DNA from: Gammaproteobacteria bacterium | GTDB lineage: Bacteria > Pseudomonadota > Gammaproteobacteria > Steroidobacterales > Steroidobacteraceae | DNA length: 58,751 nt | Assembly (NCBI GenBank): GCA_028870705.1 | Contig: JAGWPD010000252.1 | Span: 1-58,751, forward strand | Reading direction: 5' to 3' | In this document: piece after piece, positions 37,298 through 58,497 of the stretch | Position numbering within the stretch: position 1 is the stretch's first letter | Layout: each line of letters starts with the position of its first letter | Translations under genes and position numbers: made by a program | The notes under the pieces: generated by a model | Told to the model about the DNA's origin: nothing | Seen by the model: the letters and a program-made list of their open reading frames with translations, nothing else | The model's database searches: none

Positions 37298-38376
37298 AAG
37301 CGACGTTTCCCTTGAGTGCACGCCTGGCCCGGACGCTCGCCACGGTGACGCTGCCGGCCATCCTGCTGCTGCCGCTGGCGGCGTGCTCGCAATCGGGGGG
37401 TGAGCCCGAAGTGGTGCCGGTCGCCGCGGTCGCGACGGCGCCCGCCATCGAAGGATCACTGTCCGCGAACGCCGTGTCCTACGGCACGGTGACATCCGCT
37501 CCGCGTCACACGTTCATCGTGGCCGTGCTGCACGATGCGGTCGTGAAGAGCGTGAATGTGCGCGACGGCGCGGCGGTGCAGGCCGGTGCAGCGCTGGTGA
37601 CGGTCGGTCCGGCGCCGACCGCGATCGCGCAATTCGCGCAAAGCAGTTCGACGCTCGATTTCGCCACCCAGGATCTCGCCCGGGTGGAACGCTTGTATGC
37701 CGACAAGCTGGCGTCCAACGACCAGCTGGCAGCAGCCCGGAAGGCCAAGGCCGATGCGCAGGTGCAGCTGGAGCAGCTGCGTGCCACGGGCTCAGGCGCT
37801 GCCGAGGAGGTGTTGCGCGCACCGTTTGCCGGGGTGATCAGCGGCCTGCGTGCCACGGCGGGCGATCGGCTGCAGGCGAACACCGTGCTGGGCACGCTCT
37901 CGAGCAGCACCGATCTGGTCGTCCAGCTCGGCCTTGAGCCCCGTGATGCGGCCCGACTCGCGCCCGGCGCCGCCGTCCGGCTGGTCAGCCCACTCGATGC
38001 GACCGTGGTGCTCTCCGGCCTGCTGACTTCGGTGGGCGCTTTCGTGGATCCGGTCAGCCGGCTGGTGAAGGCCGTCGCGTCCATCCCCGCCACGCCACCC
38101 GGCCGCGTTACGCTGGGGATGACGCTGATCGGGCACCTGACCCTGCCGCCACACAAAGGCATACTCATTCCGCGCACCGCGCTGCTGGAAGATTCCCAGG
38201 GCACCTACGTCTTTGCGGTGATTGGCGGCAAGGCGCATCGGCAGGCGGTGCAGGTCGTGGTGGAAACCGACGATAAGGCGCTGGTCTCCGCTGGGCTGGC
38301 CGCCGGCACGCGCGTCATCGTGACGGGCAACGCGGCGCTGCAGGAGGGCACCGCGGTCCAGGAGCCCAAGCCGTGA
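37294..38376 (+). CDS. RND periplasmic adaptor (membrane fusion protein)
   Basis: ATGA overlap with the OMF. Lipoprotein-like 'LLLPLAACSQ'. Coiled-coil 'DQLAAARKAKADAQVQLEQLR', followed by beta-barrel segments. Confidence 0.85.
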   Translation: MKATFPLSARLARTLATVTLPAILLLPLAACSQSGGEPEVVPVAAVATAPAIEGSLSANAVSYGTVTSAPRHTFIVAVLHDAVVKSVNVRDGAAVQAGAALVTVGPAPTAIAQFAQSSSTLDFATQDLARVERLYADKLASNDQLAAARKAKADAQVQLEQLRATGSGAAEEVLRAPFAGVISGLRATAGDRLQANTVLGTLSSSTDLVVQLGLEPRDAARLAPGAAVRLVSPLDATVVLSGLLTSVGAFVDPVSRLVKAVASIPATPPGRVTLGMTLIGHLTLPPHKGILIPRTALLEDSQGTYVFAVIGGKAHRQAVQVVVETDDKALVSAGLAAGTRVIVTGNAALQEGTAVQEPKP

Positions 38377-41300
38377 ACTGGGCCCAATGGGCCTCGCACC
38401 ACCGGCGCTCCATCCTGTTCCTGCTGGCGGTCATCGCCATCGGCGGCGTGATCAGCGGGCTCAACCTGCCCGTGGCCCTGTTCCCCCAGGTGAGTTTCCC
38501 GCGAATCGCGGTGGCGATAGAGGCGGGTGACCAACCCGCAGCGCAGATGGTCACCCTGGTCACGCGACCGGTCGAACAGGCCATCAAGGCGGTGCCTGGC
38601 CTGCGCAGCATACGTTCAACCACCAGCCGCGGCAGCGCCGAGATGTCGTTGAACTTCGACTGGGGACTGGACATGGCCGTGTCCACGCTGCAGGTGCAGG
38701 CCGAGATCAATCGCGTTCTGCCTGCCTTGCCAGCCGGCACCAGTTTCACCGTCCGCCGCATGAATCCCAATGTGTTTCCGGTGGCCGCGTACAGCCTGAC
38801 ATCCAATTCCCTCGACCTGGTCAAGGTCAGGGAAATCGCGCAGTACGAGCTCGTGCCACTGCTTTCATCCATCACCGGTGTCGCACAGGTGGAGGTGCAC
38901 GGGGGTGCGGCCCGGGAAGTGCGGGTGGATGCCGATCCCGGCCGGCTGGCGAGTTATGGCCTGAGCATGGACGACGTGGCCAAGTCGCTGTCGGCCGCCA
39001 ACGTGCTCGCGGCGGTCGGACGCACCGCCGACCGGCACAAGCTGCTGCTGGCACTGTCGGACACCCAGTTGACGACGCCCGACCAGGTGCGTCAGGTGAT
39101 CGTGCGCAGCGGGCCCGATGGCGCGATCCGCCTTGCCGATGTCGCACGCGTATTCGAGACCGCCGCGCCCAGCTGGACCGTGGTCACCGCGGACGGACAT
39201 CCGGCGGTCATCGTGCAGGTCAAGCAGCAGATCGACGGCAATTCTGTGCAGATCATCCGGGACGTCAATCGCGCGCTCAGCGCCTACGCCTCGAGGCTGC
39301 CGCCCGATTTCAAGATCAGCAACTGGTACGACCAGAGCGAGCTGATCCTGGGTTCGGCGCACAGCGTCTTCGAGGCGGTGTTGATCGGCGTGGCGCTCGC
39401 GGGCCTGGTGCTGTTCGTGTTCCTGCGCAATCTGAAGATCACGCTGATCACCCTGATCGTCGTGCCGGCGGTGCTCGCGGCCACCACGCTGCTGCTGTCG
39501 GTGCTCGGCATGAGTTTCAACATCATGACCCTGGGTGGCATGGCGGCCGCCATCGGCCTGATCGTCGATGACGCCATCGTCATGATCGAGCAGATCGAGC
39601 GCCGGCTGCACAGCGATGGCGAGGAGGGCCGCGCGCAGATCCGCGCCGCGGCCTGGGAATTCCTCAAGCCGCTGGCGGGATCCTCGGCGGCCACCATCGT
39701 CATCTTCATTCCGCTCGCCTTCCTGACCGGCGTCACCGGCGCGTTCTTCAAGGCCTTGTCGCTGACGCTGTCCGCGGCCCTGATAGCCTCGTTCCTGGTC
39801 GCTTATTTCGTCATTCCGCTGCTCGCGGAATTCGTGATTACCTCGAAGGAGGCACAGGCCGAGGCGCATACCGGTCCTGCGCTCGCCTGGGTACTCGGCC
39901 GCTACCGCGCGCTGTTCGAGCGCCTGCGCGCGCGCCCGTGGCTGCTGGTGCCGGTGATTGCGGCTTTCCTGCTGCTCGGAGGTTTCGCCTACACGCAGGT
40001 GGGCAGCGGCTTCATGCCGACGCAGGACGAAGGCGGCTTCGTGTTCGACTACCTCTCGCCTCCCGGCACTTCCCTGCAGGATACGGACGCCATGCTGCAG
40101 CAGGTCGAGGCCATTCTGCGCTCGACACCCGAGGTGCTCACCTACTCCCGGCGCACCGGCCTGCAGCTCGGCGGCGGACTGACCGAGTCGAATACCGGCG
40201 ACATATTCGTGCGCCTGAAGCCGCTGCCGCGGCGCGATATCCAGGTGGTCATGGCGGAGATCCGCGAGCGCGTCGGCCGCACCATTCCGGGCCTCGATGT
40301 GGAGACGGCGCTGCTGATGGAGGACCTGATCGGCGATCTGACCGCGGTACCGCAACCCATCGAGGTCAAGATCTTCGGCGATGATCCGGCCGCACTCAAT
40401 GCCATTGCGCCGCAGGTCGCCAAGGCCATAGCCGTCGTACCGGGCGTCACGGAAATCAGGGACGGCGTGATCATCGCCGGCGACGCACTGGATATCCGCG
40501 TGGATCCGCTGAAGGCCGGCCTGGAAGGGCTCGATCCGGACCAGGTCACCAGGCAGGTAAAGGCCTTCCTGTCCGGAACCGTGGCGACGCAGCTGCAGAA
40601 TCTCGATCGCAGCATCGATGTGCGCGTCTGGCTGCCGCCGGAACAGCGCGCGACGCCCAACGACATCCGCGCGCTGCGCCTGACGGCCCCTGATGGCCAT
40701 CTGGTACCCCTGGGCAGGGTGGCGCAGTTGCAGCTGGTGACCGGCCAGCCGCAGATCACGCGCGAGAATCTCAAGCCGATGACGGCCGTGACGGCGCGCA
40801 TTGAAGGCCGCGATCTCGGCAGCACCATCGCCGACGTCAAAGCGGTGCTGGCGAAATCCACGTTGTTTTCCCAGGGCACCTACTACGAGCTGGGCGGACT
40901 CTACGCCCAGCAGCAGATCGCGTTCCGTGGGCTGATCGGCGTGCTGATCGCCGCCTTTGCGCTGGTGTTCTTCCTGCTGCTGTATCTCTACGAGCGATTC
41001 ACGCTGGCGCTGTTGATCATCGCCATGCCGTTGCTGGCGATGGCGGCGGTGTTCATGGGGCTGTGGCTCACCGGCATCGAGCTCAACATTTCCGCGATGA
41101 TGGGCATGACCATGGTCGTCGGCATCGTTACCGAGATTGCGATTTTCTATTTTTCTGAGTATGAGCTGCTGGTCGACGATGGCATGACGCACGAAGCGGC
41201 GATCATCGCGGCCGGCAGCAATCGGCTGCGACCGATCGCGATGACCACGATCGCGGCGATTCTGGCGTTGCTGCCGCTGGCCCTGGGCCTCGGGCAGGGC

Positions 41301-41426
41301 TCGGCGATGCAGCAGCCGCTGGCGATTGCGATCATCTCGGGTCTGATGGTGCAGATGCCGCTCGTGCTGATCGCGATGCCCATTGCGTTTGCGCACTGGA
41401 CTCGCCGCCAGACGCTTGCCCCCTGA
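38373..41426 (+). CDS. RND efflux permease (1017 aa), not of the CusA/CzcA TM4 signature type
   Basis: GTGA overlap with the adaptor. 12-TM RND architecture. TM4 reads 'AAIGLIVDDAIVMIEQIE', which is HAE-like and not the 'DFG..DGA..VEN' or CusA 'AIGAMVDAA' forms. Confidence 0.85.
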   Translation: MNWAQWASHHRRSILFLLAVIAIGGVISGLNLPVALFPQVSFPRIAVAIEAGDQPAAQMVTLVTRPVEQAIKAVPGLRSIRSTTSRGSAEMSLNFDWGLDMAVSTLQVQAEINRVLPALPAGTSFTVRRMNPNVFPVAAYSLTSNSLDLVKVREIAQYELVPLLSSITGVAQVEVHGGAAREVRVDADPGRLASYGLSMDDVAKSLSAANVLAAVGRTADRHKLLLALSDTQLTTPDQVRQVIVRSGPDGAIRLADVARVFETAAPSWTVVTADGHPAVIVQVKQQIDGNSVQIIRDVNRALSAYASRLPPDFKISNWYDQSELILGSAHSVFEAVLIGVALAGLVLFVFLRNLKITLITLIVVPAVLAATTLLLSVLGMSFNIMTLGGMAAAIGLIVDDAIVMIEQIERRLHSDGEEGRAQIRAAAWEFLKPLAGSSAATIVIFIPLAFLTGVTGAFFKALSLTLSAALIASFLVAYFVIPLLAEFVITSKEAQAEAHTGPALAWVLGRYRALFERLRARPWLLVPVIAAFLLLGGFAYTQVGSGFMPTQDEGGFVFDYLSPPGTSLQDTDAMLQQVEAILRSTPEVLTYSRRTGLQLGGGLTESNTGDIFVRLKPLPRRDIQVVMAEIRERVGRTIPGLDVETALLMEDLIGDLTAVPQPIEVKIFGDDPAALNAIAPQVAKAIAVVPGVTEIRDGVIIAGDALDIRVDPLKAGLEGLDPDQVTRQVKAFLSGTVATQLQNLDRSIDVRVWLPPEQRATPNDIRALRLTAPDGHLVPLGRVAQLQLVTGQPQITRENLKPMTAVTARIEGRDLGSTIADVKAVLAKSTLFSQGTYYELGGLYAQQQIAFRGLIGVLIAAFALVFFLLLYLYERFTLALLIIAMPLLAMAAVFMGLWLTGIELNISAMMGMTMVVGIVTEIAIFYFSEYELLVDDGMTHEAAIIAAGSNRLRPIAMTTIAAILALLPLALGLGQGSAMQQPLAIAIISGLMVQMPLVLIAMPIAFAHWTRRQTLAP

Positions 41427-41513: not shown

Positions 41514-44500
41514 CTACACTCGCCAGGCACGGCGACGGACGAGCAGGAACGCGGCGGGCAACACGAACATCGTCAGCAGCGTGGCGCTGATCATGCCGCC
41601 GACCATGGGTGCCGCGATGCGGCGCATGACCTCCGAACCCGTGCCGCTGCCCCACATGACGGGCAGGAGTCCCGCGATGATCACCGCAACCGTCATGGCC
41701 ACTGGCCGCACGCGCAGCGCCGCGCCTTCGATGATGGCGGTGCGCAGCGCCTCGGCCGCACCGCTCCGCTGTCCGCCTGCGGCATTGACGGCCTGGTTGA
41801 TGTAGACCAGCATGACGACGCCGATCTCGGCGGCCACGCCCGCCAGCGCGATGAACCCGACCGCCGCTGCCACCGACAGGTTGTAGCCCAGCAGGTAGAT
41901 CAGCCAAAGCCCCCCCACCAGTGCGACCGGCAGCGTCGCCATGATCAGCATTGCATCGTCGAGCCTGCGGAAAGTCAGGTACAGCAGCACGAGGATGATC
42001 AGCAAGGTGGCCGGCACGACCAGCCGCAGGCGCGCCGCCGCCCGTTGCAGAAACTCGAATTGCCCCGACCACGCCAGGGCATAACCGGGCGGCAGCCTGA
42101 CGTCCCGTGCCACCGCCGCCTGCATGTCGTGCACGGCAGCGCTGAGCGCACGACCATGCAGGTCGACATAGACCCAGCCGGAAAGTCGGCCGTTTTCGCT
42201 CTTGAGCATCGATGGTCCGTCGCTGATGGAGATCGTGGCGACCTCTCCCAGGGTGATGGCCGCGCCGCTCGGCGTCACCACCGGCAACGCGCGCAGCTTG
42301 GGCACCGAGTCGCGCAACTCCCGTGGATAACGCACGTTGATGGGAAAGCGTTGCCGCCCCTCCACGGTCTCGCCGATATTGTCGCCGCCGATCGCTCCGG
42401 ACACGATGCTCTGTACGTCCGCAATGTTGAGCCCGAAGCGTGCCGCCGCTGTCCGATCGATGCGCACATCGACATAACGTCCGCCCCGCAGCCGTTCGGC
42501 GAACGCCGAGGTGACGCCCGGCACGGCACTCACCGCGCGTTCCACCTGCAGCGCCAGGCGATCGACCTCCGCCAGATCGGGTCCCGCGACCTTGATGCCC
42601 ACCGGGCTCTTGATGCCCGTGGCGAGCATGTCGATCCGGTTGCGGATTGGCGGCACCCAGATGTTGGTCAACCCCGGCACCTGCACCAGATGATCGAGCT
42701 GCTGCACGAGTTTCTCCGGTGTCAGGCCCGCCCGCCATTGGTCACGGGGCTTGAACTGGATGGTGGTTTCGAACATCTCCAGCGGCGCGGGATCGGTGGC
42801 CGTCTCGGCACGGCCCGCTTTGCCAAAGACGCTGGCCACTTCGGGCACGGTCTTGATCAGGCGGTCCGTCTGCTGCAGCAGCTCGCCGACCTTGCCGGCT
42901 GAAATGCCGGGCAACGCCGAAGGCATGTAGAGCAGATCGCCCTCGTCGAGCGGCGGCATGAACTCCGCGCCGATGTGCTGCAGGGGGTAGAGGCTCGCGA
43001 GCAGGATCAGCGCCGCCAGAGCGAGTGTGGAGCGGGGCCAGGCGAGCGCGCGGGCGAGCGCTGGCCGATAGAGCGCCACCAGCGCGCGGTTCAGGGGGTT
43101 GTGCTGTTCCCGCGGAATGCGACCGCGGATGAGGTACCCCATGAGCACCGGGACCAGCGTCACCGCCAGGCCCGCGGCGGCGGCCATCGCGTAGGTTTTG
43201 GTGAAGGCCAGGGGCGAGAACAGTCGCCCCTCCTGCGCCTCCAGCGTAAACACCGGCATGAACGAGAAGGTGATGATCAGGAGCGAGGTGAACAGCGCCG
43301 GACCGACCTGGGCGGCCGCCTCGCCAATCACCTGCCAGCGTGCCTCGCCCTCGAGCCTTGCATCGGCATGCTCCCTGTGCCACGCCTCGATGTGCTTGTG
43401 CGCGTTTTCGATCATGACCACTGCGGCGTCAACCATCGCGCCGATGGCAATGGCGATGCCGCCCAGCGACATGATGTTCGCGTTGACACCCTGGTAGTGC
43501 ATGACGATGAAGGCCATCAGGATGCCCAGTGGCAGCGTCACGATGGCCACCAGCGCGGAGCGCAAATGGAACAGGAACAGGACGCATACCAGCGCGACGA
43601 CGATGAATTCCTCGATGAGCTTGCCACGCAGGTTGTCGATCGAGCGCGCGATGAGCCCGGATCGATCGTAGGTCGGCACGATCTGCACTCCGGCAGGCAG
43701 GCTGGCCTTGAGCGCGGCGAGCCTGGCCTTGACCGCTTCGATGGTAGCGAGCGCATTCTTGCCGCTGCGCATGATGATGATGCCGCCCGCCACCTCCCCT
43801 TCGCCATTGAGCTCGGTGATGCCGCGCCGCATCTCGGGGCCCAGCCGCACCTGCGCGACATCACCCAGGGTCACCGCCACACCCGCGGCAGTGGACTTCA
43901 GCGGTATCTCCTGAAAGTCGCCGAGCGATGTCAGGTAGCCCGAGGCCCGCACCATGTACTCCGCCTCGCCGAGTTCAAGTACCGAGCCGCCGGTCTCCTG
44001 GTTGCCTTGCTGGACGGCCTCGATCACCTGCGCGGGGGTGATGCTGAACGCCCGCAATCGCGCCGGATCCAGCACGATCTGGTACTGGCGCACCATGCCG
44101 CCCACCGAGGCGACTTCCGCCACATTGGGCACGGTCTTGAGTTCGTATTTCAGGAACCAGTCCTGCAGGGCGCGCAGCTCGGACAGATCATGTTGCCCGC
44201 TGCGGTCAACGAGCGCGTATTCGTAGACCCAGCCGAGCCCGGTCGCATCGGGCCCGAGCGAAGCGCGCGCCTGCGCCGGGAGCCGGGATTGCACCTGGTT
44301 CAGGTACTCGAGCACGCGCGAGCGCGCCCAGTAAGGGTCGGTGCCGTCCTCGAAGAGGATGTACACGTACGAATCGCCGAACATCGAATAGCCGCGCACG
44401 GTGCGCGCGCCCGGAACCGAGAGCATGGTGGTGGCCAGCGGGTAGGTCAGCTGGTTCTCCACGATCTGCGGCGCCTGGCCCGGATAGGTCGTGCGGATGA

Positions 44501-44642
44501 TCACCTGCACGTCCGAAAGGTCCGGCAGCGCATCGAGCGGCGTGCGCAGCATGGCCCAGAATCCCCAGGCCGCGAGCAACGCGCTTGCCAGCAGCACCAG
44601 GTAGCGGTTGGCAATCGAGCGGCGAATCAGCGCGGCGATCAC
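41514..44642 (-). CDS. cusA: CusA-type heavy-metal (Cu/Ag) RND efflux permease
   Basis: The GTG start at 44642 (GTGA overlap with cusB) gives '[18 protein letters not shown]', matching the CusA N-terminus. TM4 reads '[21 protein letters not shown]'. The ORF extension to 45128 is spurious. Confidence 0.9.
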
Positions 44643-45925
44643 GGACTCGCTCCGGGTGCGGCCAGCCGGTTGAAGGCCGACTCGAGGTTCGCCTCGGAAT
44701 CGATCAGGAATTGACCGGAGCGCACCACGGACTGGCCCGCCGTGAGTCCGGACAAAATCGCCGTCTTGCCGTCCGCTTCGACGCCCGTGGTCACGTTGGC
44801 GACTGCGAAGCCACCGCCATCGCGCGCCACGATCACGACGCTCCGCTCGCCCGTGGTGATGACGGCTTCGCTCGGCACCCATAGTTGCGGGCGCGCGGCG
44901 CGCCCCGGAAACGCAGCTTCGACATACATCCCGGGACTCAAGCGGCCGCCCGCATTGTCGACGGCCACCCGCACGCCGATGGTGCGGGTGACCGGGTCGA
45001 GCGCCGGCAGTACGCGCAGCACCTTGCCGGTGAACACCTGTCCGGGATAGGCAATGGTACTGATGTGCACGCGCTGTCCTGCGGCGACGGCCCGTGCCTG
45101 GCTTTCCGGCAGCTGCCCATCGACCCACACCGGATCGATGCGGTTGATGCGCGCCAGGACCGTGCCGGCCGTGAAGGCAGCGCCTTCGCGCAATCCGAGT
45201 TCCGTGACCACGCCAGCCACCGGCGCGGTCAGTTCGAAACGGGCCGGCGGTGTTCGCGATTGCTCGACTTGCAGTATCGCGGCATTCGGCACGCCGAGTA
45301 CCACCAGCCGCTGGCGCAGCGCCGCGCGCAGCGCGGAATTCCCGGCAAACGAGCCGGCTGACAGTGCGAGGTATTCCCCCAGGGCTTCGCGCCAGGCCGG
45401 TGCGTCGACTTCGGCCAGAACCTGCCCGCGGCGCACGTGCTCGAGCGCGGTGCGAATGATGAGCCGCGTCACATAGCCATCGACACGAGGCTGCACGATG
45501 GCCTGGGCCGCGTCATCGTAGGCCACGATCCCGACGGCGTTGACCACGGGTGAGATCGCGGCACGCTCGACCCGCCCGAGCCTGATGCCCAGCTGCTGCT
45601 GTGCGGCGGTGCTGACGTGCACGTCAGGCTCGCCGGATGCGGCATTGGCATTGTCGTCGGCATAGACCGGCTGCAGCGGCATGTCCATGAAGGGAGACTT
45701 GCCCGGTTTGTCGAACCTCAATTCGGGTCGCATCGGGTCGTGCCAATAGAGCACGCGCCGCTCGGGATTGGCAGCAGGCACAGCGCTCGCTGGCGATGCA
45801 CCGCCGCCCGCCGCATGGTGCCCGGCCCGCCACTTCGACCAACCCACGCCAAGCGCCAGACCTGCGATCAGCACGACCAGCAGTGACGCCAATTGGCGCG
45901 TCCAATGCATGTTTGAGTGGCTCAT
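44639..45925 (-). CDS. cusB: CusB-type periplasmic adaptor
   Basis: Carries the '[31 protein letters not shown]' motif characteristic of Cu/Ag adaptors. ATGA overlap with cusC. Confidence 0.88.
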
Positions 45926-47190
45926 GGTGCGTTGCTCCCGGTCGAGAGAAAGTTGAGATAAGCCCAGGCGCGCCCGTAGCTGCCGTAGATCTCGGCAAAG
46001 GAGAGTTCGAGATTCAGCTGGTCGCCAAGCACGGACAGCGCCGTGCTGGCGTCGGTGGTGCCCGCGGCCAATCCGGCCAGAGCGGCGGCTGATCGCGCCC
46101 GCGCCAGCGGCAACCGCTGCTGTTCATAGAGCGCCACGCGATCGCGCCCCGCCTGCCAGTCGGCCAGCGTCGCGGCAAGTTCCGCCGTGTGCATCCGGAA
46201 TGCGGCCTGGCGGTCCGCTTCGAGCTGCCGCACCGTGGCGCGTCGCGCCGCGATCACGGGATCGGCGCGTGAGGCCGCAAACAACGGCAGGCTCACACGC
46301 ACTTCCACGGAGACCATGTTCGAGTAGCCCGGCCCGCGCTGACCATAGGAGACTTCGCTGCTCCAGTCGGGTCGCCGGTCGGCCGTGGCCACCGCGATCG
46401 CCGCCTTCGCCTCCGCCACCCGCGCATCGAAGGCGCGCAGTTCCGCGTGCCGATGCACGCCGGCCTGCAGCGACGAAGCACTGGCCGGCAAGACCTCGAA
46501 GGATGGCGGCGGCGCCAGCGGTCGAGCAGCCAACGTGCCAATCCACCGGGCGAGTCCGGCGCGCGCGGCAAGCGCCTGCTGATGCGCAACCAGCAGCCGA
46601 TCGGCAAGTTCGGCCGCGCTCGACTGCGCTTCGAGCAGCTCGGCGCTGGCGGCCCGGCCATTGGCCAGGGCATTGCGTGCGAGCGTCACCTGCAGTTCGT
46701 AGTTGGGTTGCAGGGCCGCCAGTGCCTGCACGGCCTGTTCGGTCGTGAGCACCGCGATCCACGCCTGTGCCGTCGAGAGCGAAACGTCCAGCCGGGTTTG
46801 CGCAGCTTCCGTCAGCGCCGCGACCGCGCGAGCCTGCGCCATCGACCGCTCGGCGCTGCGGCGGTGGGCGTTGCCGAACGACTGCATGACGCCGACTTTC
46901 CGCATCGTCATGAAGTCGCGGTCCACGCTCCACGCATCCGGTCCATTGACCGGGAGATTCTCCACGCCGGCGATGATTTCCGGCGCCGGCAGGCGACCGG
47001 CGGCGACCGCCTCCGCATTGGCGCTGTCGGCCGCCGCCAGGCGCGCTTGCAACTGCGGCGCCGATCGATTCGCCTCGGTCACGGCTGCTTCGATCGTCAG
47101 GGGTTCATTCGTGAGGGGATCAGGGGCCGCCGCCGCGGCGAGACCTGCCCAAAGGCACGAGGCCCAGGTAATCCATCGAACTGCGCTCAT
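45922..47190 (-). CDS. cusC: CusC/CzcC-type outer-membrane factor (no lipobox)
   Basis: Signal peptide 'WASCLWAGLAAAAA'. TolC-family helical repeats. First gene of a translationally coupled CBA triplet. Confidence 0.8.
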   Translation of the reverse strand: MSAVRWITWASCLWAGLAAAAAPDPLTNEPLTIEAAVTEANRSAPQLQARLAAADSANAEAVAAGRLPAPEIIAGVENLPVNGPDAWSVDRDFMTMRKVGVMQSFGNAHRRSAERSMAQARAVAALTEAAQTRLDVSLSTAQAWIAVLTTEQAVQALAALQPNYELQVTLARNALANGRAASAELLEAQSSAAELADRLLVAHQQALAARAGLARWIGTLAARPLAPPPSFEVLPASASSLQAGVHRHAELRAFDARVAEAKAAIAVATADRRPDWSSEVSYGQRGPGYSNMVSVEVRVSLPLFAASRADPVIAARRATVRQLEADRQAAFRMHTAELAATLADWQAGRDRVALYEQQRLPLARARSAAALAGLAAGTTDASTALSVLGDQLNLELSFAEIYGSYGRAWAYLNFLSTGSNAP

Positions 47191-48838: not shown

Positions 48839-50149
48839 TCATCTGGTTTGAATGATCCGCCGGACGGGCCCGCCAAAATCAGGATCGGAACTCACTCGTC
48901 GCGCCACCGTGCCCGCCGGCGCCTGGTACCAACCCGGATCGCGGTAGTCATTCGCCGCCAACCCGCGACGCACCTTGACGGTCGTGAACATGCCGCCCAT
49001 CTCGAGGGCGCCGTACGGTCCAGTGCCGCCCATCATGGGCAGAGTGTTGGCGGGACCCGGCAGCTTCATCGCTTCGACGTGTTCCTGGTGGGCCGACATG
49101 CCATCGGCCCCCATGTTCATCATTCCCGGGAGGAGCGCTTCGAGGTCGGCGTCCGATGCGGCGATACGTGCGCCGAGCACGTTGGGGATGCCGTGGCCCA
49201 TCGCGTTCATCGTGTGATGCGCCATGTGACAGTGCAGCGCCCAGTCGCCGGGGACTGCTACGAACTCGAGGTCGCGGGTCTGGCCGACACCGATGAGTTC
49301 GGTCACTTCCGGGCGCCAGCGTTGGCGGGGCCAGCGCCCGCCATCGGAACCGGTCACGTCGAACTGGTGGCCGTGCAGATGGATGGGATGGTTGTACATC
49401 GACAGATTCCCGATCCGTATGCGCACCCGCTCGCCGGCGCGGACTACCAGCGGATCGATTGCCGGGAACACCTTGCTGTTGAAAGTCCACAGGTCGAAAT
49501 CCAGCATGATCGATGGATCGGGGCGGTACGTTCCCGGATGCAGCGACCAGTTGTGCAGCAGGAAGGCGAAATCCCGGTCAATCGGCTCGGGTTCGCCGCC
49601 TGCCGGGTGAATGATGAACAGCCCCATCATGCCCACCGCCATCTGCACCATCTCGTCGGCATGCGGGTGATACATGTGGGTGCCGTGCTGGCGGAGCGTG
49701 AACTCGTAGGCAAAAGTCTCGCCGGGCCCGATGGCCGGTTGCGACAACCCGCTGACGCCGTCCATGCCCGAGGGCAGGAGGATGCCGTGCCAGTGGATCG
49801 AGGTCGGCTCCGGCAGGCGATTGGTGACGAGAATCCGCACGCGGTCGCCTTCGACGGCTTCGAGGGTCGGCCCTGGAGTGCCGCCGTTGTAGCCCCAGCA
49901 CTTCGCTTTGCAGCCGGGCGCGAACTCGTGATCCACTTCTTCGGCCACGAGATGGAATTCCTTCACGCCTGCTTTCAGCGTGTAGGGCAGGCTCCAGCCG
50001 TTGAGCGTACGAACCGACCCCGTGGATCTTCCTGGCCGTGCCGGCGCCGCCCTGGCATCAGCCGCCGGGGTGCCCGCGGCCGCGTCCACGGCGGCGCCGA
50101 GGGCCGCGGTTCCGGCCGCCAGAATCAGCGAACGACGGGACACGGTCAT
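48839..50149 (-). CDS. Tat-exported multicopper oxidase (compact, 436 aa)
   Basis: Tat signal 'SRRSLILAAGTAALGA'. Copper ligand motifs 'IHWHG', 'YHPH', 'HPIHLHGH' and 'HCHMAHHTMNAM'. Met-rich C-terminal segment 'GMMNMGADGMS...LPMMGG...EMGGM'. Confidence 0.9.
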   Translation of the reverse strand: MTVSRRSLILAAGTAALGAAVDAAAGTPAADARAAPARPGRSTGSVRTLNGWSLPYTLKAGVKEFHLVAEEVDHEFAPGCKAKCWGYNGGTPGPTLEAVEGDRVRILVTNRLPEPTSIHWHGILLPSGMDGVSGLSQPAIGPGETFAYEFTLRQHGTHMYHPHADEMVQMAVGMMGLFIIHPAGGEPEPIDRDFAFLLHNWSLHPGTYRPDPSIMLDFDLWTFNSKVFPAIDPLVVRAGERVRIRIGNLSMYNHPIHLHGHQFDVTGSDGGRWPRQRWRPEVTELIGVGQTRDLEFVAVPGDWALHCHMAHHTMNAMGHGIPNVLGARIAASDADLEALLPGMMNMGADGMSAHQEHVEAMKLPGPANTLPMMGGTGPYGALEMGGMFTTVKVRRGLAANDYRDPGWYQAPAGTVARRVSSDPDFGGPVRRIIQTR

Positions 50150-51711: not shown

Positions 51712-51996
51712 ATGTTGCAGGAAGAGTTGAGCGCACTGGCCCGGGCGCCCCTGGATCGCTCCCTGGACGGACTCGAGTCCGGTATCTGGCGGGTGGTCGA
51801 GGCGAAGACGAGCGAGCGTCGGGCCTATCGGGGAATCGTCACGATGCAACTCGTGATCCTGGCCATCGGTGTGGCCGGTAGCCTCGGCTTCGGCCGCCAA
51901 TGGGCCACGACCCACAATGCCGCGGGACCTCACGGCGTATTTTCCCCCTACACACGCCTGGTGGCGTCCAATCTGCTGGTTGGCGAGCCGCGATGA
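51712..51996 (+). CDS. CnrY-like small single-pass membrane anti-sigma factor (94 aa)
   Basis: A cytoplasmic N-terminus of about 45 aa, one TM segment ('IVTMQLVILAIGVAGSLGFG') and a short periplasmic tail. ATGA overlap with the next gene. Size, topology and position match CnrY (95 aa). Confidence 0.6.
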   Translation: MLQEELSALARAPLDRSLDGLESGIWRVVEAKTSERRAYRGIVTMQLVILAIGVAGSLGFGRQWATTHNAAGPHGVFSPYTRLVASNLLVGEPR

Positions 51997-52427
51997 AAAA
52001 GGACGCGGTCGCGCTGGTGATCCTGACTTTCGCTGTTGCGGTACTGGGCGGTTGGCTCGGCGTACGGCTCGGCCAACGGGAGCTGACTTCCAACCTGGGT
52101 CTCGACCAGGTGCTGCATCATGACCTGTCGCTCACCAAAGGACAGGAACGGCGGATCGAAGAACTTGAAGCCAGCTTCTCCGTGAAGCGCAAGTCGCTGG
52201 AATCCGAGATGCGGGCAGCCAACCGCGAGCTGGCGCAGGCCATGGTGACGGAGCATCGGATGAGCCCTGCGGTCGAGCAGGCCATCGGCCACTTCCATGT
52301 GGCGATGCGTCAGCTCCAGGAACTGACGACCGCACACGTACTGAGCATGCGCGAGGAGTTGACCCCGCCCCAGGCTGCAATCTTCGATCGGTCGGTCGTC
52401 AGGGCCCTCGACGCGGACGGACCGTGA
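51993..52427 (+). CDS. CnrX-like membrane-anchored periplasmic metal sensor (144 aa)
   Basis: An N-terminal TM anchor, then a gapless alignment (offset 4) to CnrX as I recall it: 'RAAN..LA', 'AHVLSMR' versus 'VHVFEMR', and 'FDRSVVRAL' versus 'YDRVLIDAL'. Confidence 0.75.
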   Translation: MKKDAVALVILTFAVAVLGGWLGVRLGQRELTSNLGLDQVLHHDLSLTKGQERRIEELEASFSVKRKSLESEMRAANRELAQAMVTEHRMSPAVEQAIGHFHVAMRQLQELTTAHVLSMREELTPPQAAIFDRSVVRALDADGP

Positions 52428-52999
52428 GTGAGCCGGCGGCGCCCGCTGACGTGCGCCTGGCGGCAGCGGCACGACACGGGGATCGCGCCGCTTTCGAAAC
52501 GCTGGTCTCGCTCCACAAAGCCAGTCTTTACAGGCTCGCCCGCCGTTCCACCGGCAACGGGGATGATGCCTACGATATCGTGCAGGACACCTTCGTCTCC
52601 GCGTGGCTCGCACTCGCGAGATTCAATCCGGCGCATGCCTTCGGGCCCTGGATCCGGACCATCCTGCTCAACAAATGCCGCGACTTCTCGCGGCGCCGCG
52701 CGGTCCGCAACCGGATTCTCCAATGGTGGACGTCCGGCGTTTCGCCACCGGGTGAAGCGGCGTGCGCCGACGTCGAGGCAGACTCCGCACTACAGGACCG
52801 CGCCCGCCTGAGGTCACTGGATCAGGCCATTGCGAATCTGCCCAGCCGCTACCAGGTGCCGCTTATACTGACGGCCCTGCAGGGACTGAGTCACCGCGAG
52901 GCGGCCGACCAGCTCGGGTTGACGCCCAAGGCGGTGGAACTACGCGTTCACCGCGCCCGCAAGCGACTCCAGGAACTGTTGCGAGGGGACGAGCCCTGA
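52424..52999 (+). CDS. ECF sigma-70 family factor, CnrH-like (191 aa)
   Basis: GTGA overlap with the sensor gene. Region 2 'DIVQDTFVSAWLALARFNPAHAFGPWIRTILLNKCRDFSRRR'. Region 4 'LILTALQGLSHREAADQLGLTPKAVELRVHRARKRL'. Confidence 0.88.
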   Translation: MSEPAAPADVRLAAAARHGDRAAFETLVSLHKASLYRLARRSTGNGDDAYDIVQDTFVSAWLALARFNPAHAFGPWIRTILLNKCRDFSRRRAVRNRILQWWTSGVSPPGEAACADVEADSALQDRARLRSLDQAIANLPSRYQVPLILTALQGLSHREAADQLGLTPKAVELRVHRARKRLQELLRGDEP

Positions 53000-53020
53000 C
53001 TCCGCCCGAGGGATTGACCC

Positions 53021-54967
53021 ATGTGGCTTGAGGCCGAGCGCACACGACGGCGGAAATGCGCCGTGCTCGTCGTCATGCTCGTGGCCGTGCCGACTTTTGC
53101 GCGGGCGGACGATGATGATGCGTCCAGGCTCGAAGAGGTGGTGGTCACGGCCACGCGTTCGCCGGGCCTGATCCGCGATGAGCCGCTGCACGTCGAGACC
53201 GTGCCGACCGAGGAGATCGAGGAGAACCTGACGATCCGGCCGGGGAACCTCACTGCGCTCCTGAAGGAGCTGCCGGGCGTGCGCATTCAAGCGTCGGCGC
53301 CGGGACTGGGCGGTGCCGGCATGCAGCTGCGCGGGATGCCGGCGCGCGACACGCTGGTCCTGACCGACGGCTTGCCCCTGCTGGGCGCCGAGCCCGATGC
53401 CTTCGGACTGCTGCAGACTCCACCGCTCGATCTGGCCCGCGTGGAGGTCATCAACGGGGCCGTTTCCGCGCTCTATGGAGGTTCCGCGCTCGGCGGTGTG
53501 CTGAATCTGGTCTCGCGCACGGCGGACTCCGAGCCGGGGATTCTCGCCAACGTGACCGCCCGCGGCGGTGAGGACCTGGTCGGATTCCTTACCCACAAGG
53601 GCGGCTCGCCGTGGAGCGAGACGCTCACGGTCGGTATGCACGATCAGTCGCGCGTGGATGTCAACGGCGACGGCTGGGCGGACCTGCCCGGCTATCGCCG
53701 GTATACGCTGCAGCCGCGAGTCTGGTGGCGCGGGACCCAGGGACGCTCCCTGTTGCTCACGGCCGGCATTGTCGATGAGGATCGGAGCGGCGGAACGGTA
53801 GCCAATGGGGTGCTGCCGGACGGCCGCGTTTTTCCGCAACACCTGCGCACCCGGCGTTTCAACGCGGGAGCGGTCAGCCAGCTTCCCATCACGGACGCCG
53901 ACACGCTCAGCGGCCGCTATTCGCTGACCTCGACTCACCTCGACCGAAGCTTCGGCAGCCAACGGATCGAATCGACGCAGACGACGGCGTTCGCCGAGGA
54001 AGCAGTGAACGGCTCATTCGGGGCGCATCGCTGGGTGGCGGGCGTGGCCTTCGAGCACGATGGGCTCAAGGTGCCGGCTGTCCCCGGCGTCGGCTACGCC
54101 TACGATGTGCCAGCGGTGTTTGCCCAGGACACCTACACGGCGGCCCCATGGCTGGTCGTAGCCGGGAGCGTGCGCGTGGACGCCCACAATGACTACGGGA
54201 CATTCGTGAGCCCGCGCGCATCTGCGCTGTGGCGGGCACCGCACAGCGCGTGGAGCCTGCGCGCCTCGATCGGGGCGGGATACTCCGCGCCGACTCCGCT
54301 GCTCGATGACATCGAGGCAACGGGATTTGGTCCCCTGTCGCCGCTGCGCGGCCTGCACGCCGAGCGCGCGACGACGGCCTCCATCGATGGCAAATGGGCC
54401 GACGATGGCTGGGACATCAACGTGAGCATATTCACCTCGGAGATCCGCGATCCGCTTGCCGTCGTGCCGACGGGCGGCCAGTTGCGGATCATCAATGCCC
54501 CGGGTCCCCGGCGCGCCCCGGGCGCGGAGCTCCTGATCGGCTATGTGGCCGGGCCTCTGCACGCGATTGCGTCGTTCAGTTCGATTCACGCCACGCAAGC
54601 CGATCTGACGGGCGCCCGTCAGGGTGTGCCGCTCGTGCCACGCGAAACCGCCTCCCTGGATGCGATCCTCGAGAGCGAACAGCGCGGTCGCATTGGCTTT
54701 GAGCTCGATTACACGGGGCCGCAGACGCTGGAGAACGACCCGTTTCGTGCCACGAGCCCGGCTTTCGTTGCGGTCAACGCGCTGGCGGAGATCCGTTTCA
54801 AGGGCATCGGGGTATTCCTCAACGCGCTCAATCTCACGAACGTGCGGCAGACCCAATTCGATCCGCTGCTTCGCCCCGGCCCGGGGCCCGGCGGCAACCC
54901 GATCACCGACGTGTGGGCGCCGCTGGACGGGCGGACCTTCAATCTCGGCATCCGCCTGGAGTTATAG
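53021..54967 (+). CDS. TonB-dependent outer-membrane receptor (648 aa), lacking an N-terminal signalling extension
   Basis: Signal peptide 'VLVVMLVAVPTFARA'. The plug starts immediately ('RLEEVVVTATRSPG...LRGMPARDTLVLTDGLPL...VEVINGAVSALYGGSALGGVLNLV'). The gene begins 21 nt after the sigma gene. Confidence 0.88.
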   Translation: MWLEAERTRRRKCAVLVVMLVAVPTFARADDDDASRLEEVVVTATRSPGLIRDEPLHVETVPTEEIEENLTIRPGNLTALLKELPGVRIQASAPGLGGAGMQLRGMPARDTLVLTDGLPLLGAEPDAFGLLQTPPLDLARVEVINGAVSALYGGSALGGVLNLVSRTADSEPGILANVTARGGEDLVGFLTHKGGSPWSETLTVGMHDQSRVDVNGDGWADLPGYRRYTLQPRVWWRGTQGRSLLLTAGIVDEDRSGGTVANGVLPDGRVFPQHLRTRRFNAGAVSQLPITDADTLSGRYSLTSTHLDRSFGSQRIESTQTTAFAEEAVNGSFGAHRWVAGVAFEHDGLKVPAVPGVGYAYDVPAVFAQDTYTAAPWLVVAGSVRVDAHNDYGTFVSPRASALWRAPHSAWSLRASIGAGYSAPTPLLDDIEATGFGPLSPLRGLHAERATTASIDGKWADDGWDINVSIFTSEIRDPLAVVPTGGQLRIINAPGPRRAPGAELLIGYVAGPLHAIASFSSIHATQADLTGARQGVPLVPRETASLDAILESEQRGRIGFELDYTGPQTLENDPFRATSPAFVAVNALAEIRFKGIGVFLNALNLTNVRQTQFDPLLRPGPGPGGNPITDVWAPLDGRTFNLGIRLEL

Positions 54968-55083: not shown

Positions 55084-55632
55084 ATGACAAATCTGAACTC
55101 CAAGCTGGAGCGCCTCGCTGAACAGACGCTGTTTGCGAGCCGTTGGCTGATGGCGCCTTTCTATCTGGGAATGGTCCTTGCCTTGGTGCTGCTGTTGATC
55201 GTGTTCGGCCGCGAACTCGCCGCCGAGTTCGCGCATGTCCAGACCGTGAATGCCGAAAGCGCCGTCCTGCTGGCGCTGTCGTTGATCGATTTGTCCCTGA
55301 CCGGCAACCTGCTGCTGATCGTGATGTTTTCGGGATATGAGAATTTCGTATCGCGGATGCAGATCGGCGATCACGAGGATCGGCCCAGCTGGATGGGCAC
55401 GGTTGATTTTTCCGGCATGAAAATGAAGTTGATTGCATCGATCGTCGCGATCAGCGGCATCGCCTTGCTGCGTACGTTTCTGCCGCTGAGCGATCCGGAC
55501 TCGAAGATGGACAGCCAGCGCATCGGCTGGATGGTCGCCATTCATCTCACGTTTGTCATCTCAGGCGTGCTATTGGCGGTCATGGACTGGATTACATCCA
55601 AGGCCGAAGCGCGCGGTCCCACCGGGCATTGA
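55084..55632 (+). CDS. yqhA: UPF0114/YqhA-family inner-membrane protein
   Basis: 'FASRWLMAPFYLGMVLAL', 'LLIVMFSGYENFVS', 'KLIASIVAISGIALLR' and 'VAIHLTFVISG' run collinear with E. coli YqhA as I recall it. Confidence 0.85.
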   Translation: MTNLNSKLERLAEQTLFASRWLMAPFYLGMVLALVLLLIVFGRELAAEFAHVQTVNAESAVLLALSLIDLSLTGNLLLIVMFSGYENFVSRMQIGDHEDRPSWMGTVDFSGMKMKLIASIVAISGIALLRTFLPLSDPDSKMDSQRIGWMVAIHLTFVISGVLLAVMDWITSKAEARGPTGH

Positions 55633-55709
55633 AAGGCCGGCGATCGAGGCTTCACAGCCCGGACCGCCAGCGGGTAGCTGAGGCTCGGCCCGGCCGCGCG
55701 CGGGCGCCG

Positions 55710-56111
55710 TTACGGCGCCCCGAGCGCTCCGGCGCCCGAAGCGAGCGCACCGATGATCGGACAAGGCGCCTGCGGACCGGACGCCTCGCAATCGGCGAGC
55801 AGGTGCCCAAGCACCCGCTCCATCCGTTGCAGCGCCGCGAGCTTGTCACGCACGTTCTTGAGGCGCGCGCCGGCAATCTGCCGCACTTCGGCCCGGGTGC
55901 CGCCGTCCTCGAGCCGCAACAGCTCGCGGATTTCCACGAGCGCGAAGCCCAGTGCCTGCGCGTGCTTGATGAATTGGACGCGATGCAACACGCCGGACGA
56001 ATAGCGGCGCACGCCAGCCGCGGCCGGAACGGGCAGCAGTTGGCGCCGTTGGTAATAGCGGATCGTCTCGACCCCGACCCGCGCCGCCGCCGCGAGGCGC
56101 CCGATGGTCAT
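55710..56111 (-). CDS. MerR-family metalloregulator of the Hg-MerR clade, lacking the Cys82 equivalent
   Basis: 'MTIGRLAAAARVGVETIRYYQ...FIKHAQALGFALVEIRELLRLEDGGTRAEV...LADCEASGPQAPCPIIGAL' aligns with Tn501 MerR. The C117 and C126 equivalents are kept with identical spacing. An alternative upstream start lies at 56174. Confidence 0.85.
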   Translation of the reverse strand: MTIGRLAAAARVGVETIRYYQRRQLLPVPAAAGVRRYSSGVLHRVQFIKHAQALGFALVEIRELLRLEDGGTRAEVRQIAGARLKNVRDKLAALQRMERVLGHLLADCEASGPQAPCPIIGALASGAGALGAP

Positions 56112-56177
56112 GCCGGCCGCGGCCACCCCGGTGCGCGCGGGCCGGTGCGAGCGGCGTTTGCTGGCTGCATGCATGGC

Positions 56178-56209
56178 TTGACTCCGTACCTTGGTACGGA
56201 GTTTAGAAT
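56178..56209 (+). promoter_or_regulatory. MerR-type promoter/operator: TTGACT, 20-bp spacer with a perfect dyad, TAGAAT
   Basis: -35 TTGACT at 56178-56183. Dyad ACTCCGTACC-TT-GGTACGGAGT at 56181-56202, containing the TCCGTAC-N4-GTACGGA core. -10 TAGAAT at 56204-56209. Confidence 0.8.
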
Positions 56210-56247
56210 CCCAGGCATCGATCGGGCAAGCACTCAAGGACAAGCTC

Positions 56248-58497
56248 ATGAACTGTTGCACGGGCTCCCATCCGGAACATGCGCACGGCCAACGTGCGCA
56301 CGCGGATTCTCCGACCGAGCGCGATCCGGTCTGCGGCATGCTCGTCGACCCCGCGGCTGCAGCAGCGCAACCGCAGCACGACGTGGTCTACACCTGCCCC
56401 ATGCATCCCGAGGTGCGGCAGATCGGGCCGGGCAATTGCCCGAAATGCGGCATGGCACTGGAACCCGTCGAGGCGACACCGTCGGACCGTCCGAGCGCTG
56501 AGCTCAGCGACATGACCTGGCGCCTGTGGATCGGCGCGGCCCTCACTGCGCCGCTGTTCGTCCTGGAGATGAGCGCCCATCTGCCTGCGCTGCAGCTCCA
56601 TCGCCTGGTCACACCGCAACTCTTGCAGTGGATCCAGCTGCTGCTTGCGACACCAGTGGTCCTGTGGGCGGGCTGGCCGTTCTTCGAGCGGGCTTTCGCC
56701 TCGGTACGGCATCGCTCCCTCAACATGTTCAGCCTGATTGGCCTGGGGGTCGCGGCAGCGTATCTCTACAGTCTGTTCGCTAGCGTTGCGCCTGCCCTGT
56801 TCCCGGCCGGACTGCGGAACGACCACGGCCTCATCCCGGTGTATTACGAGGCCGCCGCCGTGATCACGGTGCTCGTGCTGGTCGGGCAGGTGCTGGAGTT
56901 GCGCGCCCGCGAACACACGAGCAGCGCCATCCGGGCGCTCCTCAACCTCGCGCCCCGCAGCGCACGACGGTTGCGCGCCGATGGAACGGAGGAAGACATC
57001 GGTCTCGATCAGGTGCGCGCGGGCGATCGATTGCGCGTACGTCCGGGCGAATCCGTACCGGTCGATGGCACTGTCCTGGAAGGATCGAGCCCCGTCGATG
57101 AATCCATGGTCACGGGCGAATCGATGCCCGTGGAAAAGGCGCCGGGCGCCGGGCTCATCGGCGGGACGATCAATGGCACGGGAGCGATCGTCATGCGTGC
57201 CGACAAGGTCGGCGCCGATACCATGCTCGCGCGCATCGTGCAGATGGTCTCCGCGGCGCAGCGCAGCCGTGCTCCCATCCAGCGGCTCGCCGATGTCGTC
57301 TCGAGCTGGTTTGTCCCGGCCGTGATCGCAGCCGCGGCGCTGGCATTCACCGCCTGGCTCATCTGGGGTCCCGCGCCGGCATTGGCGTACGCGCTGGTCG
57401 CCGCCGTGTCGGTCCTCATCATTGCCTGCCCCTGCGCGCTGGGTCTCGCTACGCCCATGTCCATCATGGTCGGCGTCGGCAAGGGTGCGAGCGCAGGCGT
57501 GCTCATCAGGAACGCGGAAGCACTCGAGCGTTTCGAGAAGATCGACACACTGGTGGTCGACAAGACCGGCACGATCACCGAAGGCAAACCCCAGGTCGTT
57601 GCCGTGCGGGTCGCGCCGGGATTCGACCAGTCGACAGTGTTGACGCACGGTGCGAGCCTCGAACGCGCGAGCGAACATCCGTTGGCCGCGGCGATTGTCC
57701 GAGCCGCCCTCGAGCGCGGCAGCGAGTTGCTGCCGGTGGCGGACTTCGCCTCGGTCACGGGTCAGGGCGTCAAGGGCACGGTCGCCGGGGCACTCACGCT
57801 GATTGGCAACCGTCGACTGCTGGCCGACGCACGGCTGGACCCGCTCGCCCTGGAATCCGAGGCCGACGGGCTGAGGCGCGATGGTGCGACCGTGATGTTC
57901 GTCGCCATCCGCGGCCAGCTGGCCGGTCTCATCGCGGTCGCCGATCCCATCAAAGCCACGGCGCCCGCGGCGCTGGCGAGCCTGGCAGCCGATGGCGTCC
58001 GGATCGTGATGCTCACGGGCGACAACCGGATCACCGCCGCAGCCGTCGGCCGCAAACTGGGGCTGACTGAAATCGAAGCGGAAGTGCTGCCGGACCAGAA
58101 GCACGCCGTCGTGCGGCGCCTCCGCCGCGAGGGACGCGTGGTGGCGATGGCCGGAGATGGCGTCAACGACGCGCCGGCGCTGGCCGAAGCGGACATCGGC
58201 ATCGCCATGGGCACGGGCACGGACGTGGCCATGCACAGTGCAGGCGTCACGCTGGTGAAAGGAGACCTCGCCGGCATCGCCCGGGCCCGGGCCCTGAGCC
58301 GGGCGACGATGCGCAATATCCGGCAGAACCTGGTGCTGGCCTTCGTCTACAACGTGCTGGGAATCCCCGTTGCCGCCGGCGTGCTGTATCCGTTCTTTGG
58401 TCTGCTTTTGAGCCCGGCCATTGCAGCGGCAGCCATGTCGCTCAGTTCAGTGTCCGTGATCGGCAATGCGTTGCGGCTGCGCCGTACAAGGCTCTGA
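56248..58497 (+). CDS. copA: P1B-1 (Cu+/Ag+) P-type ATPase with a non-canonical N-terminal metal-binding region
   Basis: AAGGA lies 7 nt before the ATG at 56248. Motifs 'CPC' (TM4), '[14 protein letters not shown]' (N-x6-YN-x4-P), '[11 protein letters not shown]' (M-x2-SS), 'DKTGTITEG' and '[10 protein letters not shown]'. The N-terminus carries 'CC', a His-rich stretch, 'DPVCGM' and 'YTCPMHPEV...[10 protein letters not shown]' instead of a GMxCxxC ferredoxin-like domain. Confidence 0.9.

Follow-up and report, generated by a model that had tools for sequence, protein, structure and literature searches.

Which metal does a MerR-family regulator respond to when it has kept two of the three mercury ligands of Tn501 MerR, carries an arginine in place of the third, and is divergently oriented to a copper pump? 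This question is raised by a regulator-pump pair located near the end of a 58,751-nucleotide stretch of DNA (the window), corresponding to contig JAGWPD010000252.1 of GenBank assembly GCA_028870705.1, from a gammaproteobacterium of the family Steroidobacteraceae. Based on the evidence described below, I estimate with a probability of roughly 60% that the regulator is an activator of the MerR type that responds to Cu(I)/Ag(I)/Au(I), originating from the Hg-MerR lineage and re-tasked to a Cu(I)/Ag(I) export pump. The elements concerned are the following.

55710..56174, minus strand: MerR-family metal-sensor gene, Arg-type MerR-like (stop codon 55710-55712)
56178..56209, plus strand: ATPase promoter, with the -35 box TTGACT (56178-56183), a 20-bp spacer (CCGTACCTTGGTACGGAGTT) and the -10 box TAGAAT (56204-56209)
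56183..56200, no strand: operator dyad, 7-4-7, TCCGTAC-CTTG-GTACGGA (TCCGTACCTTGGTACGGA), an exact match to the proteobacterial mer consensus
56248..58497, plus strand: 749-aa P-type ATPase of subfamily P1B-1, a Cu(I)/Ag(I) exporter of the Legionella CopA type

The regulator, its operator and its target

For comparison with Tn501, the MerR protein sequence was taken from PDB entry 5CRL, and the DNA sequence from CP075759.1, where merR is 100% identical and is accompanied by merTPADE. In a HMMER alignment, the window segment LRLEDGGTRAEV falls on LRLEDGTHCEEA of Tn501 MerR, which places Arg73 at Cys82, and DCEASGPQAPCPII falls on ACHARRGNVSCPLI, which places Cys108 at Cys117 and Cys117 at Cys126 (regulator residues are counted from the MTIGRL start, see below). 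The two loop cysteines are nine positions apart in both proteins, and are separated by an 8-residue metal-binding loop in the regulator. The original prediction, made from the DNA letters alone, had proposed that the regulator can be aligned to Tn501 MerR, with equivalents of Cys117 and Cys126 at the same 9-residue spacing, and with Arg in place of the third mercury ligand; the alignment to 5CRL bears this out on each point. The Tn501 sequences it gave were right at the compared positions, except that LDDGTHCEEA actually reads LEDGTHCEEA, which leaves the argument unaffected. Compared to the three-cysteine mercury site (Cys82/Cys117/Cys126), the regulator thus keeps Cys117 and Cys126 but has Arg for Cys82. 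Like the CueR/GolS type, it has two cysteines in the loop but none at the N-terminal position of helix alpha5; it differs from that type in having Arg instead of Ser77, and 8 rather than 7 residues in the loop.

Among the NCBIfam subfamily models, that of Hg-MerR ranks first for the regulator (TIGR02051, 121.5 bits), leading the others by about 44 bits (ZntR 77.7, CueR 73.8, CadR 71.1). These scores are under the curated Hg-MerR cut-offs (121.5 against 150.85 bits for TIGR02051, and 119.3 against 261 for NF010315), as well as under that of CueR (73.8 against 147.4 bits, TIGR02044). Pairwise identity is highest to Tn501 MerR (48.5%), followed by ZntR and Bacillus MerR (38% each), CadR (36%) and CueR (27%); for reference, the genuine Hg-MerR of Bacillus is only 37.6% identical to that of Tn501. 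The closest fold in the PDB to a model of the regulator is likewise 5CRL, followed by CadR, PbrR and CueR. By these comparisons, the regulator is closer to Hg-MerR than to the other MerR subfamilies that sense metals.

The open reading frame (ORF) of the regulator contains two possible ATG start codons, at position 56174 (MHAASKRR..., 154 aa) or 56111 (MTIGRL..., 133 aa). The longer form is probably the correct one, because a GGAG motif is found 7 nt upstream and the ATG is 3 nt from the -35 hexamer, because the same layout is found in Tn501 merR (ATG 5 nt from the -35) and in the closest homologue (L001, one of the loci of the genome scan described below), and because most homologues are called at 150-160 aa. 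The GGAG motif is part of the right arm of the operator. Pfam identifies the MerR_1 and MerR-DNA-bind domains, and the general architecture is that of MerR activators, with a winged helix-turn-helix (HTH), a long antiparallel dimerisation helix, a C-terminal effector loop, and a dyad inside a 19-20 bp spacer. An AlphaFold2 model, with a predicted local distance difference test score of 90.7, shows the MerR topology of HTH and coiled-coil. In this model R73 is the first residue of helix alpha5, C108 is at the end of the same helix, and C117 opens a short C-terminal helix. Arg73 is encoded by a CGG codon. There is no second MerR-family gene in the window.

The ATPase promoter was read by hand, and then confirmed by its conservation across loci. 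A standard sigma-70 scan of positions 55600-56400 returned no promoter, because its spacers were restricted to 16-18 nt. The operator dyad overlaps the final base of the -35 box, and is the sole match in the 58.7 kb window, even with 2 mismatches allowed (0.09 expected by chance). In Tn501, the intergenic region (CP075759.1) reads TTGACT-CCGTACATGAGTACGGAAG-TAAGGT, with a 19-bp spacer, and the register of the dyad on the -35 box is identical to that of the window. The anticipated mer operator core, TCCGTAC-N4-GTACGGA, set on the -35 box as in Tn501, is therefore present, exact, at 56183-56200, and the spacer proposed to be 20 bp rather than 19 bp was read directly as such. A CueR box was rejected as an alternative for the operator, as the promoter of E. 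coli copA reads TTGACC-TTCCCCTTGCTGGAAGGTT-TAACCT, while the window possesses a mer box. The mer operator consensus and its 19-bp norm have been described (PMC1526738), and the 20-bp spacer of the window departs from the latter. "Mixed" mer signals, where the proteobacterial dyad is found in a 20-bp spacer, were reported by Permina et al. 2006 (PMC1526738), and MerR activators operate on spacers of 19-20 bp (PMC11672702, PMC1526738). The spacer of the window is over-long, a common trait of promoters that MerR-type regulators switch on by distorting the DNA.

The divergent gene encodes a P1B-1 ATPase, and no mer genes are found next to the regulator in the window. The ATPase scores 575 bits with the copper P1B-1 model TIGR01511 (cut-off 397) and 604 bits with TIGR01525, compared to 393 bits with the cadmium-type model TIGR01512. 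The CPC motif of transmembrane helix (TM) 4, the YN motif of TM5, the MxxSS motif of TM6 (MSLSS), and the DKTGT phosphorylation site all align with those of E. coli CopA. Its best solved relative is the Legionella CopA structure 3RFU (889 bits, residues 8-748 against 6-735), a Cu(I) ATPase that has been studied by experiment. The target had been predicted to be a P1B-1 copper/silver pump instead of merTPA, and the TIGR01511 score, the CPC/YN/MxxSS motifs and the match to 3RFU are all in agreement with this.

The N-terminus of the ATPase begins with a His-rich stretch that includes a CC motif, followed by a YHS remnant (DPVCGM only) and an HMBD (YTCPMHPE...CPKCGM; Pfam PF19335, aa 47-74), with no classical CxxC HMA domain. 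This resembles the pumps of the family in general, which possess a His-rich CC stretch, a YHS domain and an HMBD (YTCPMHPE...CP.CGM, PF19335), and no classical HMA. In the window ATPase, DPVCGM, the first motif of the YHS/TRASH domain, joins the HMBD directly (56248-56480). A full YHS domain (..YHFCSEGC..KF) is found in loci L001 and L002, and none in L003.

Conservation and gene pairing across related loci

Arginine at the Cys82 position, together with both loop cysteines, is found in all of the best 120 matches to the regulator among 5.8 billion proteins (120/120). A diverse alignment of 21 sequences shows no variation at R73, R77, C108 or C117, and a conservation of 90% or above at E109. 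Among the best 150 representatives clustered at 50% identity, the three cysteines are all present in 82, and Arg together with both loop cysteines in at least 42.

A genome scan, limited to one genome per species, returned 80 loci. Most are from Burkholderiales (Caldimonas, Piscinibacter, Rhizobacter, Undibacterium, Albidiferax, Hydrogenophaga and others), with further loci in Steroidobacteraceae (the closest, at 73-75% identity), Nitrotoga, Sulfurifustis and Stagnimonas, and classical merR loci (Halomonas, Marinobacter and others) were also among those returned. Distinct regulators were classed by residue 82, and by their divergent neighbour, as identified by tblastn, using as queries the pump of the window and the MerT, MerP and MerA proteins of Tn501. 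For the Arg/Lys-type regulators with an identified divergent neighbour, this is a homologous ATPase in 39 cases out of 39, and mer genes in none; for the Cys-type regulators it is merT/P/A in 11 out of 11, and the ATPase in none. Arg-type loci outside the count of 39 either lie on contigs that are cut short, or are members of one sub-branch whose operon is longer. The P1B-1 motifs and DKTGT are present in all 33 pumps paired with Arg-type regulators. Only two alignment columns split the pump-linked from the mer-linked regulators at 85% conservation or above, namely 82 (R/K versus C) and 92 (R versus K), and the HTH recognition residues are common to both groups.

The promoters follow the same division. 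A layout of TTGACT, 20 bp and TAnnnT is shared by 39 Arg/Lys-type promoters (the window and related loci), whereas the spacer measures 19 bp at 10 of the 12 mer-linked loci, and 20 bp at the other two (L051 and L079). The perfect mer dyad is retained in the nearest relatives of the window (L001-L004, L021 and L023). In L005-L019 and other Burkholderiales loci, a dyad reduced to its right half is found about 30-80 nt upstream of the regulator; recognition-helix residues still match Tn501 MerR in these regulators.

Several individual loci are worth describing. L001 and L002 are two regulator-pump pairs on different contigs of one Steroidobacteraceae metagenome-assembled genome (MAG; JBGAGE01); their regulators are 75% and 73% identical to that of the window, and the perfect dyads are identical in both. 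In L006, where an Arg-type regulator is on a contig cut 369 nt upstream, two ORFs with a weak likeness to merT and merP (56 and 83 bits; positions 1238-1874) are convergent and about 0.8 kb downstream, and may represent a CopZ-like chaperone rather than mer genes. The regulator of L077, from a Burkholderiales MAG, reads LQLDDGLERCTIR, with Arg at the Cys82 position and Cys directly after it. It still faces an ATPase from a promoter with a 20-bp spacer, and is possibly an intermediate or revertant form. The sub-branch mentioned above comprises L029, L032, L037, L040-L044, L046, L047 and L082. The last of these is on the mobilizable plasmid p1-T1 of Acidovorax sp. T1 (NZ_CP021649.1), where the Arg-type regulator faces a hypothetical gene, ppk2 (polyphosphate kinase 2), a P-type ATPase and an MFS gene. 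The best plasmid match, from Cupriavidus (H13), was considered as an Arg-type example from a cultured model and rejected, as it is a genuine Cys-type MerR with merTPA.

I then placed these regulators in a bootstrapped neighbour-joining (NJ) tree of 74 sequences, consisting of the context-verified locus regulators together with Tn501 MerR, Bacillus MerR, CadR, ZntR and CueR. The clade uniting the Arg/Lys-type regulators with the proteobacterial Cys-type MerR has a bootstrap value of 70%, and of 78% with Bacillus MerR added. Strict monophyly of the Arg-type regulators obtained 23% only, yet 55 of the 57 are in one clade of the best tree. This tree replaced a NJ tree of 170 representatives, which was set aside as its bootstraps were near zero; its topology was the expected one, in which a R/H/K clade of 60 members and an all-Cys clade of 43, Tn501 MerR among them, are sisters. 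Overall, the sequences lend moderate support to the regulator being sister to, or nested in, the Hg-MerR lineage.

CadR, ZntR and both Hg-MerRs carry Cys where the Arg-type regulators carry Arg or Lys. Since both the outgroups CadR and ZntR and the two Hg-MerRs share this residue, parsimony suggests that the cysteine was lost in the Arg-type lineage; a change from TGY to CGY (Cys to Arg) needs one transition. Phylogeny had been named as the check on the predicted position in the mercury clade, and agrees with it in the grouping with proteobacterial Hg-MerR (70%), less so in the 23% for Arg-type monophyly and in the score under the MerR cut-off. As for the predicted specificity switch within this clade, what stands is that the nearest family is Hg-MerR, that the operator is of mer type, that the target is a P1B-1 pump, and that the arginine tracks the target. 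What does not is the notion of a one-off event at this locus, since the arginine is an invariant family trait, and the clade placement is only moderate.

Inducing metal and competing explanations

By homology with MerR, CueR and ZntR, the pump promoter is most likely activated by under-twisting, through DNA distortion of the kind reviewed for MerR-family regulators (PMC11672702). In the proposed mechanism, the dimer would stay bound at all times to the mer-type dyad, which lies within the over-long 20-bp spacer, holding the pump promoter in poor geometry when free of metal, and would probably also repress its own divergent gene. Cys108 and Cys117 would bind a soft monovalent ion, Cu(I), or possibly Ag(I) or Au(I). 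Metal binding would then cause the dimer to under-twist and kink the DNA, bringing the -35 and -10 boxes in register and allowing RNA polymerase to fire. I infer Cu(I) as the inducer from the partner pump and the copper/heavy-metal neighbourhood, with Ag(I) and Au(I) as likely co-inducers, as for CueR.

The third mercury ligand, which in MerR is Cys82 from the partner subunit, is replaced by an invariant cationic residue, mostly Arg and in rare cases Lys, where the dimerisation helix begins. In the role proposed here, this residue would remove the trigonal thiolate site, and would balance the charge of -1 carried by a bis-thiolate M(I)(Cys)2 centre, thereby creating a bias to +1 ions; the conserved Glu109 is a possible partner of Arg73. 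In CueR and GolS, a serine at this position (Ser77), along with a 7-residue loop, is described as excluding +2 ions, and the S77C substitution admits them (PMC11672702, PMC11591864, PMC9733647). This conserved serine at the N-terminus of alpha5 and a 7-residue loop are the defining features of the CueR/GolS type (PMC11672702, PMC9733647), and loop length influences the discrimination between Hg(II) and Cu(I) (PMC11672702). The loss of Cys82 may have been the cause of the metal switch, although linear two-coordination alone is compatible with Hg(II).

The regulator could accordingly still be a mercury sensor, with linear Hg(II) held by the two cysteines, and the pump acting as a mercury or general soft-metal efflux system without MerA. 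MerR is indeed its closest family, the loop has MerR length, the operator and the recognition residues are of mer type, and Hg(II) prefers two-coordinate thiolate binding. The automatic JGI annotation also names many Arg-type members "Hg(II)-responsive transcriptional regulator", a label which looks wrong. I nonetheless consider a mercury sensor unlikely, as merT/P/A neighbours are found for 0 of the 39 Arg/Lys-type regulators while Cys82 is kept in 11 of the 11 mer-linked ones, as the pump signature is that of a Cu(I)/Ag(I) P1B-1 ATPase and not of the ZntA-type P1B-2 (575 bits for TIGR01511 versus 393 for TIGR01512), and as the regulator is below the curated MerR cut-off. In addition, according to the classical MerR mutagenesis literature, changes to Cys82 abolish activation by Hg(II). 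A sensor of Zn, Cd or Pb similar to ZntR, CadR or PbrR, where two cysteines combine with non-cysteine ligands, would fit with ZntR (77.7) coming next after MerR in the profile ranking and CadR (71.1) just below CueR (73.8), with CadR and PbrR being good fold matches, and with the 20-bp spacers known from divalent-responsive and firmicute mer promoters (PMC1526738). It is improbable, however, since the characterised divalent sensors compared (ZntR, CadR and both MerRs) all have Cys where Arg/Lys stands, a cation beside the site should disfavour +2 ions, and the pump is of the Cu type, with a CPC/YN/MxxSS pattern identical to that of E. coli CopA.

That the regulator is no metal sensor at all, and instead a thiol or redox switch like NmlR, AdhR or SoxR, or a decaying MerR relic, seems very improbable. 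Cysteine-based sensing of oxidants and electrophiles is known among MerR-family members (PMC11672702), and the loss of a ligand cysteine would look like decay in a single sequence. The relic is nevertheless excluded by the invariance of Arg73, Arg77, Cys108 and Cys117 across more than 100 clusters, and by the conservation of both the regulator-pump pairing and the promoter geometry across orders of Proteobacteria. A redox role, for its part, leaves unexplained the strict pairing with a Cu-type ATPase that possesses metal-binding N-terminal domains, as well as the retention of the metal-sensor CxxxxxxxxCP loop.

The assignment as a Cu(I)/Ag(I)/Au(I)-responsive activator of mercury-sensor descent has a number of points against it. 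The loop has the length found in MerR (8 residues), not that of CueR (7), so the regulator may yet respond to Hg(II), an ion that is readily held by two thiolates in linear geometry. The arginine could play a structural role instead, for example in a salt bridge to Glu109, which is itself conserved at 90% or above. The support of the tree is moderate (70-78%), and was obtained by NJ with few outgroups. The operator model is also not uniform across the Arg-type family, as Burkholderiales loci keep the right half of the dyad only (TTGACTCTGGGGTnGrGTACGGAGTTTA), and one Arg-type sub-branch (LDLEDGRNRRAIQ...) has a different operon layout and lacks the promoter of TTGACT, 20 bp and TAnnnT. Finally, no expression, binding or metal-response results for Arg-type members were found in the literature.

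A broader proposal goes beyond the locus, and I advance it tentatively, at odds somewhat short of even: that a widespread family arose from a mercury-sensor lineage via a Cys-to-Arg change at the position of the third ligand, and that its cation is a selectivity device not recognised before, selecting electrostatically for bis-thiolate M(I) in a loop of MerR length, unlike the Ser77 and short loop of CueR.

Genomic surroundings, significance and relation to known systems

The regulator-pump pair closes a metal-resistance island of roughly 25 kb (34527-55632), located to its left and containing the following genes.

Within 34527-55632: histidine kinase
35951-41426, plus strand: czc/cus-like OEP/MFP/RND operon
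41514-47190, minus strand: cusCBA-like operon, including a CusB-like protein with an HMBD
Within the island: cytochrome c with a SnoaL domain
48839-50149: multicopper oxidase
Within the island: additional OEP
51900-54967: Metal_resist PF13801 protein, ECF sigma factor and TonB-dependent receptor
Within the island: UPF0114 protein

A second P-type ATPase, of type II/III (Cation_ATPase_N and Cation_ATPase_C), is present at 30177-32675, adjoining an EamA transporter and two-component genes. DNA of the window was detected in metagenomes from soil and mine drainage.

There is nothing unusual in the control of a copper pump by a MerR-family activator placed before it, as CueR shows. What is out of the ordinary here is the descent from a mercury sensor, the retained mer operator, and the arginine in a site with an 8-residue loop. 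No description of an Arg-type MerR relative was found in the freely accessible reviews and comparative papers (among them the 2024 Chem Rev review on metallostasis, a 2026 preprint on metalloregulators by sequence similarity network, and PMC1526738). The textbook rule, with Ser for +1 ions, Cys for +2 ions and a shorter loop for +1 ions, does not cover this family, whose members are frequent among Burkholderiales, Steroidobacteraceae and related bacteria of soils, waters and mine drainage. It represents a natural experiment on metal choice, in which a mercury sensor's scaffold, loop length and operator are combined with one ligand position that has become cationic, and with a copper pump as the output. 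If the proposed role of the arginine is true, the exclusion of +2 ions has been solved twice within one fold, a change of one residue could retune biosensors built on the MerR scaffold, and many of the "merR" calls made in metagenome surveys would in truth be copper/silver sensors. The "Hg(II)-responsive regulator" labels can inflate estimates of mercury resistance that are based on merR, and the Arg-type regulator and its operator provide a ready orthogonal pair for metal biosensors.

With regards to known systems, the pump is closest to Legionella pneumophila CopA (3RFU), which it matches over nearly its full length and with which it has the CPC/YN/MxxSS motifs in common; it differs in that its YHS domain is cut to DPVCGM, whereas this domain is complete in its close relatives L001 and L002. 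"Mixed" mer operons (PMC1526738), represented here by L051 and L079, also combine the proteobacterial dyad with a 20-bp spacer, but their regulators keep Cys82 and control mer genes, unlike the Arg-type regulator and pump of the window. CueR, GolS and CupR (1Q05, TIGR02044) resemble the window regulator in their two loop cysteines with no third, their P1B-1 pump target and their over-long spacer (PMC11672702). They are distinguished from it by the low identity to CueR (27%), a 7-residue loop compared to 8, and Ser77 compared to Arg; moreover, PcopA has a CCTTCC-N7-GGAAGG box and a 19-bp spacer, rather than the mer box and 20 bp of the window. CopR of Rubrivivax, a lineage rich in the Arg-type family, was considered as a member and rejected, being an ordinary CueR with S77, C112 and C120 (PMC11591864).

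The strongest likeness is to MerR of Tn501/Tn21 (5CRL, TIGR02051), which is the best match of the regulator by sequence, profile and fold. The two have in common the HTH recognition residues, the equivalents of Cys117 and Cys126 at a 9-position spacing, a 7-4-7 operator in the same register on TTGACT, and a divergent regulator gene starting a few bases from the -35 box. They differ in that the window family has Arg (Lys in a few relatives) for Cys82, a 20-bp spacer and a score below the cut-off, in that the window regulator possesses a longer N-terminal extension, and in that its target is a Cu-type P1B ATPase and not merTPA.

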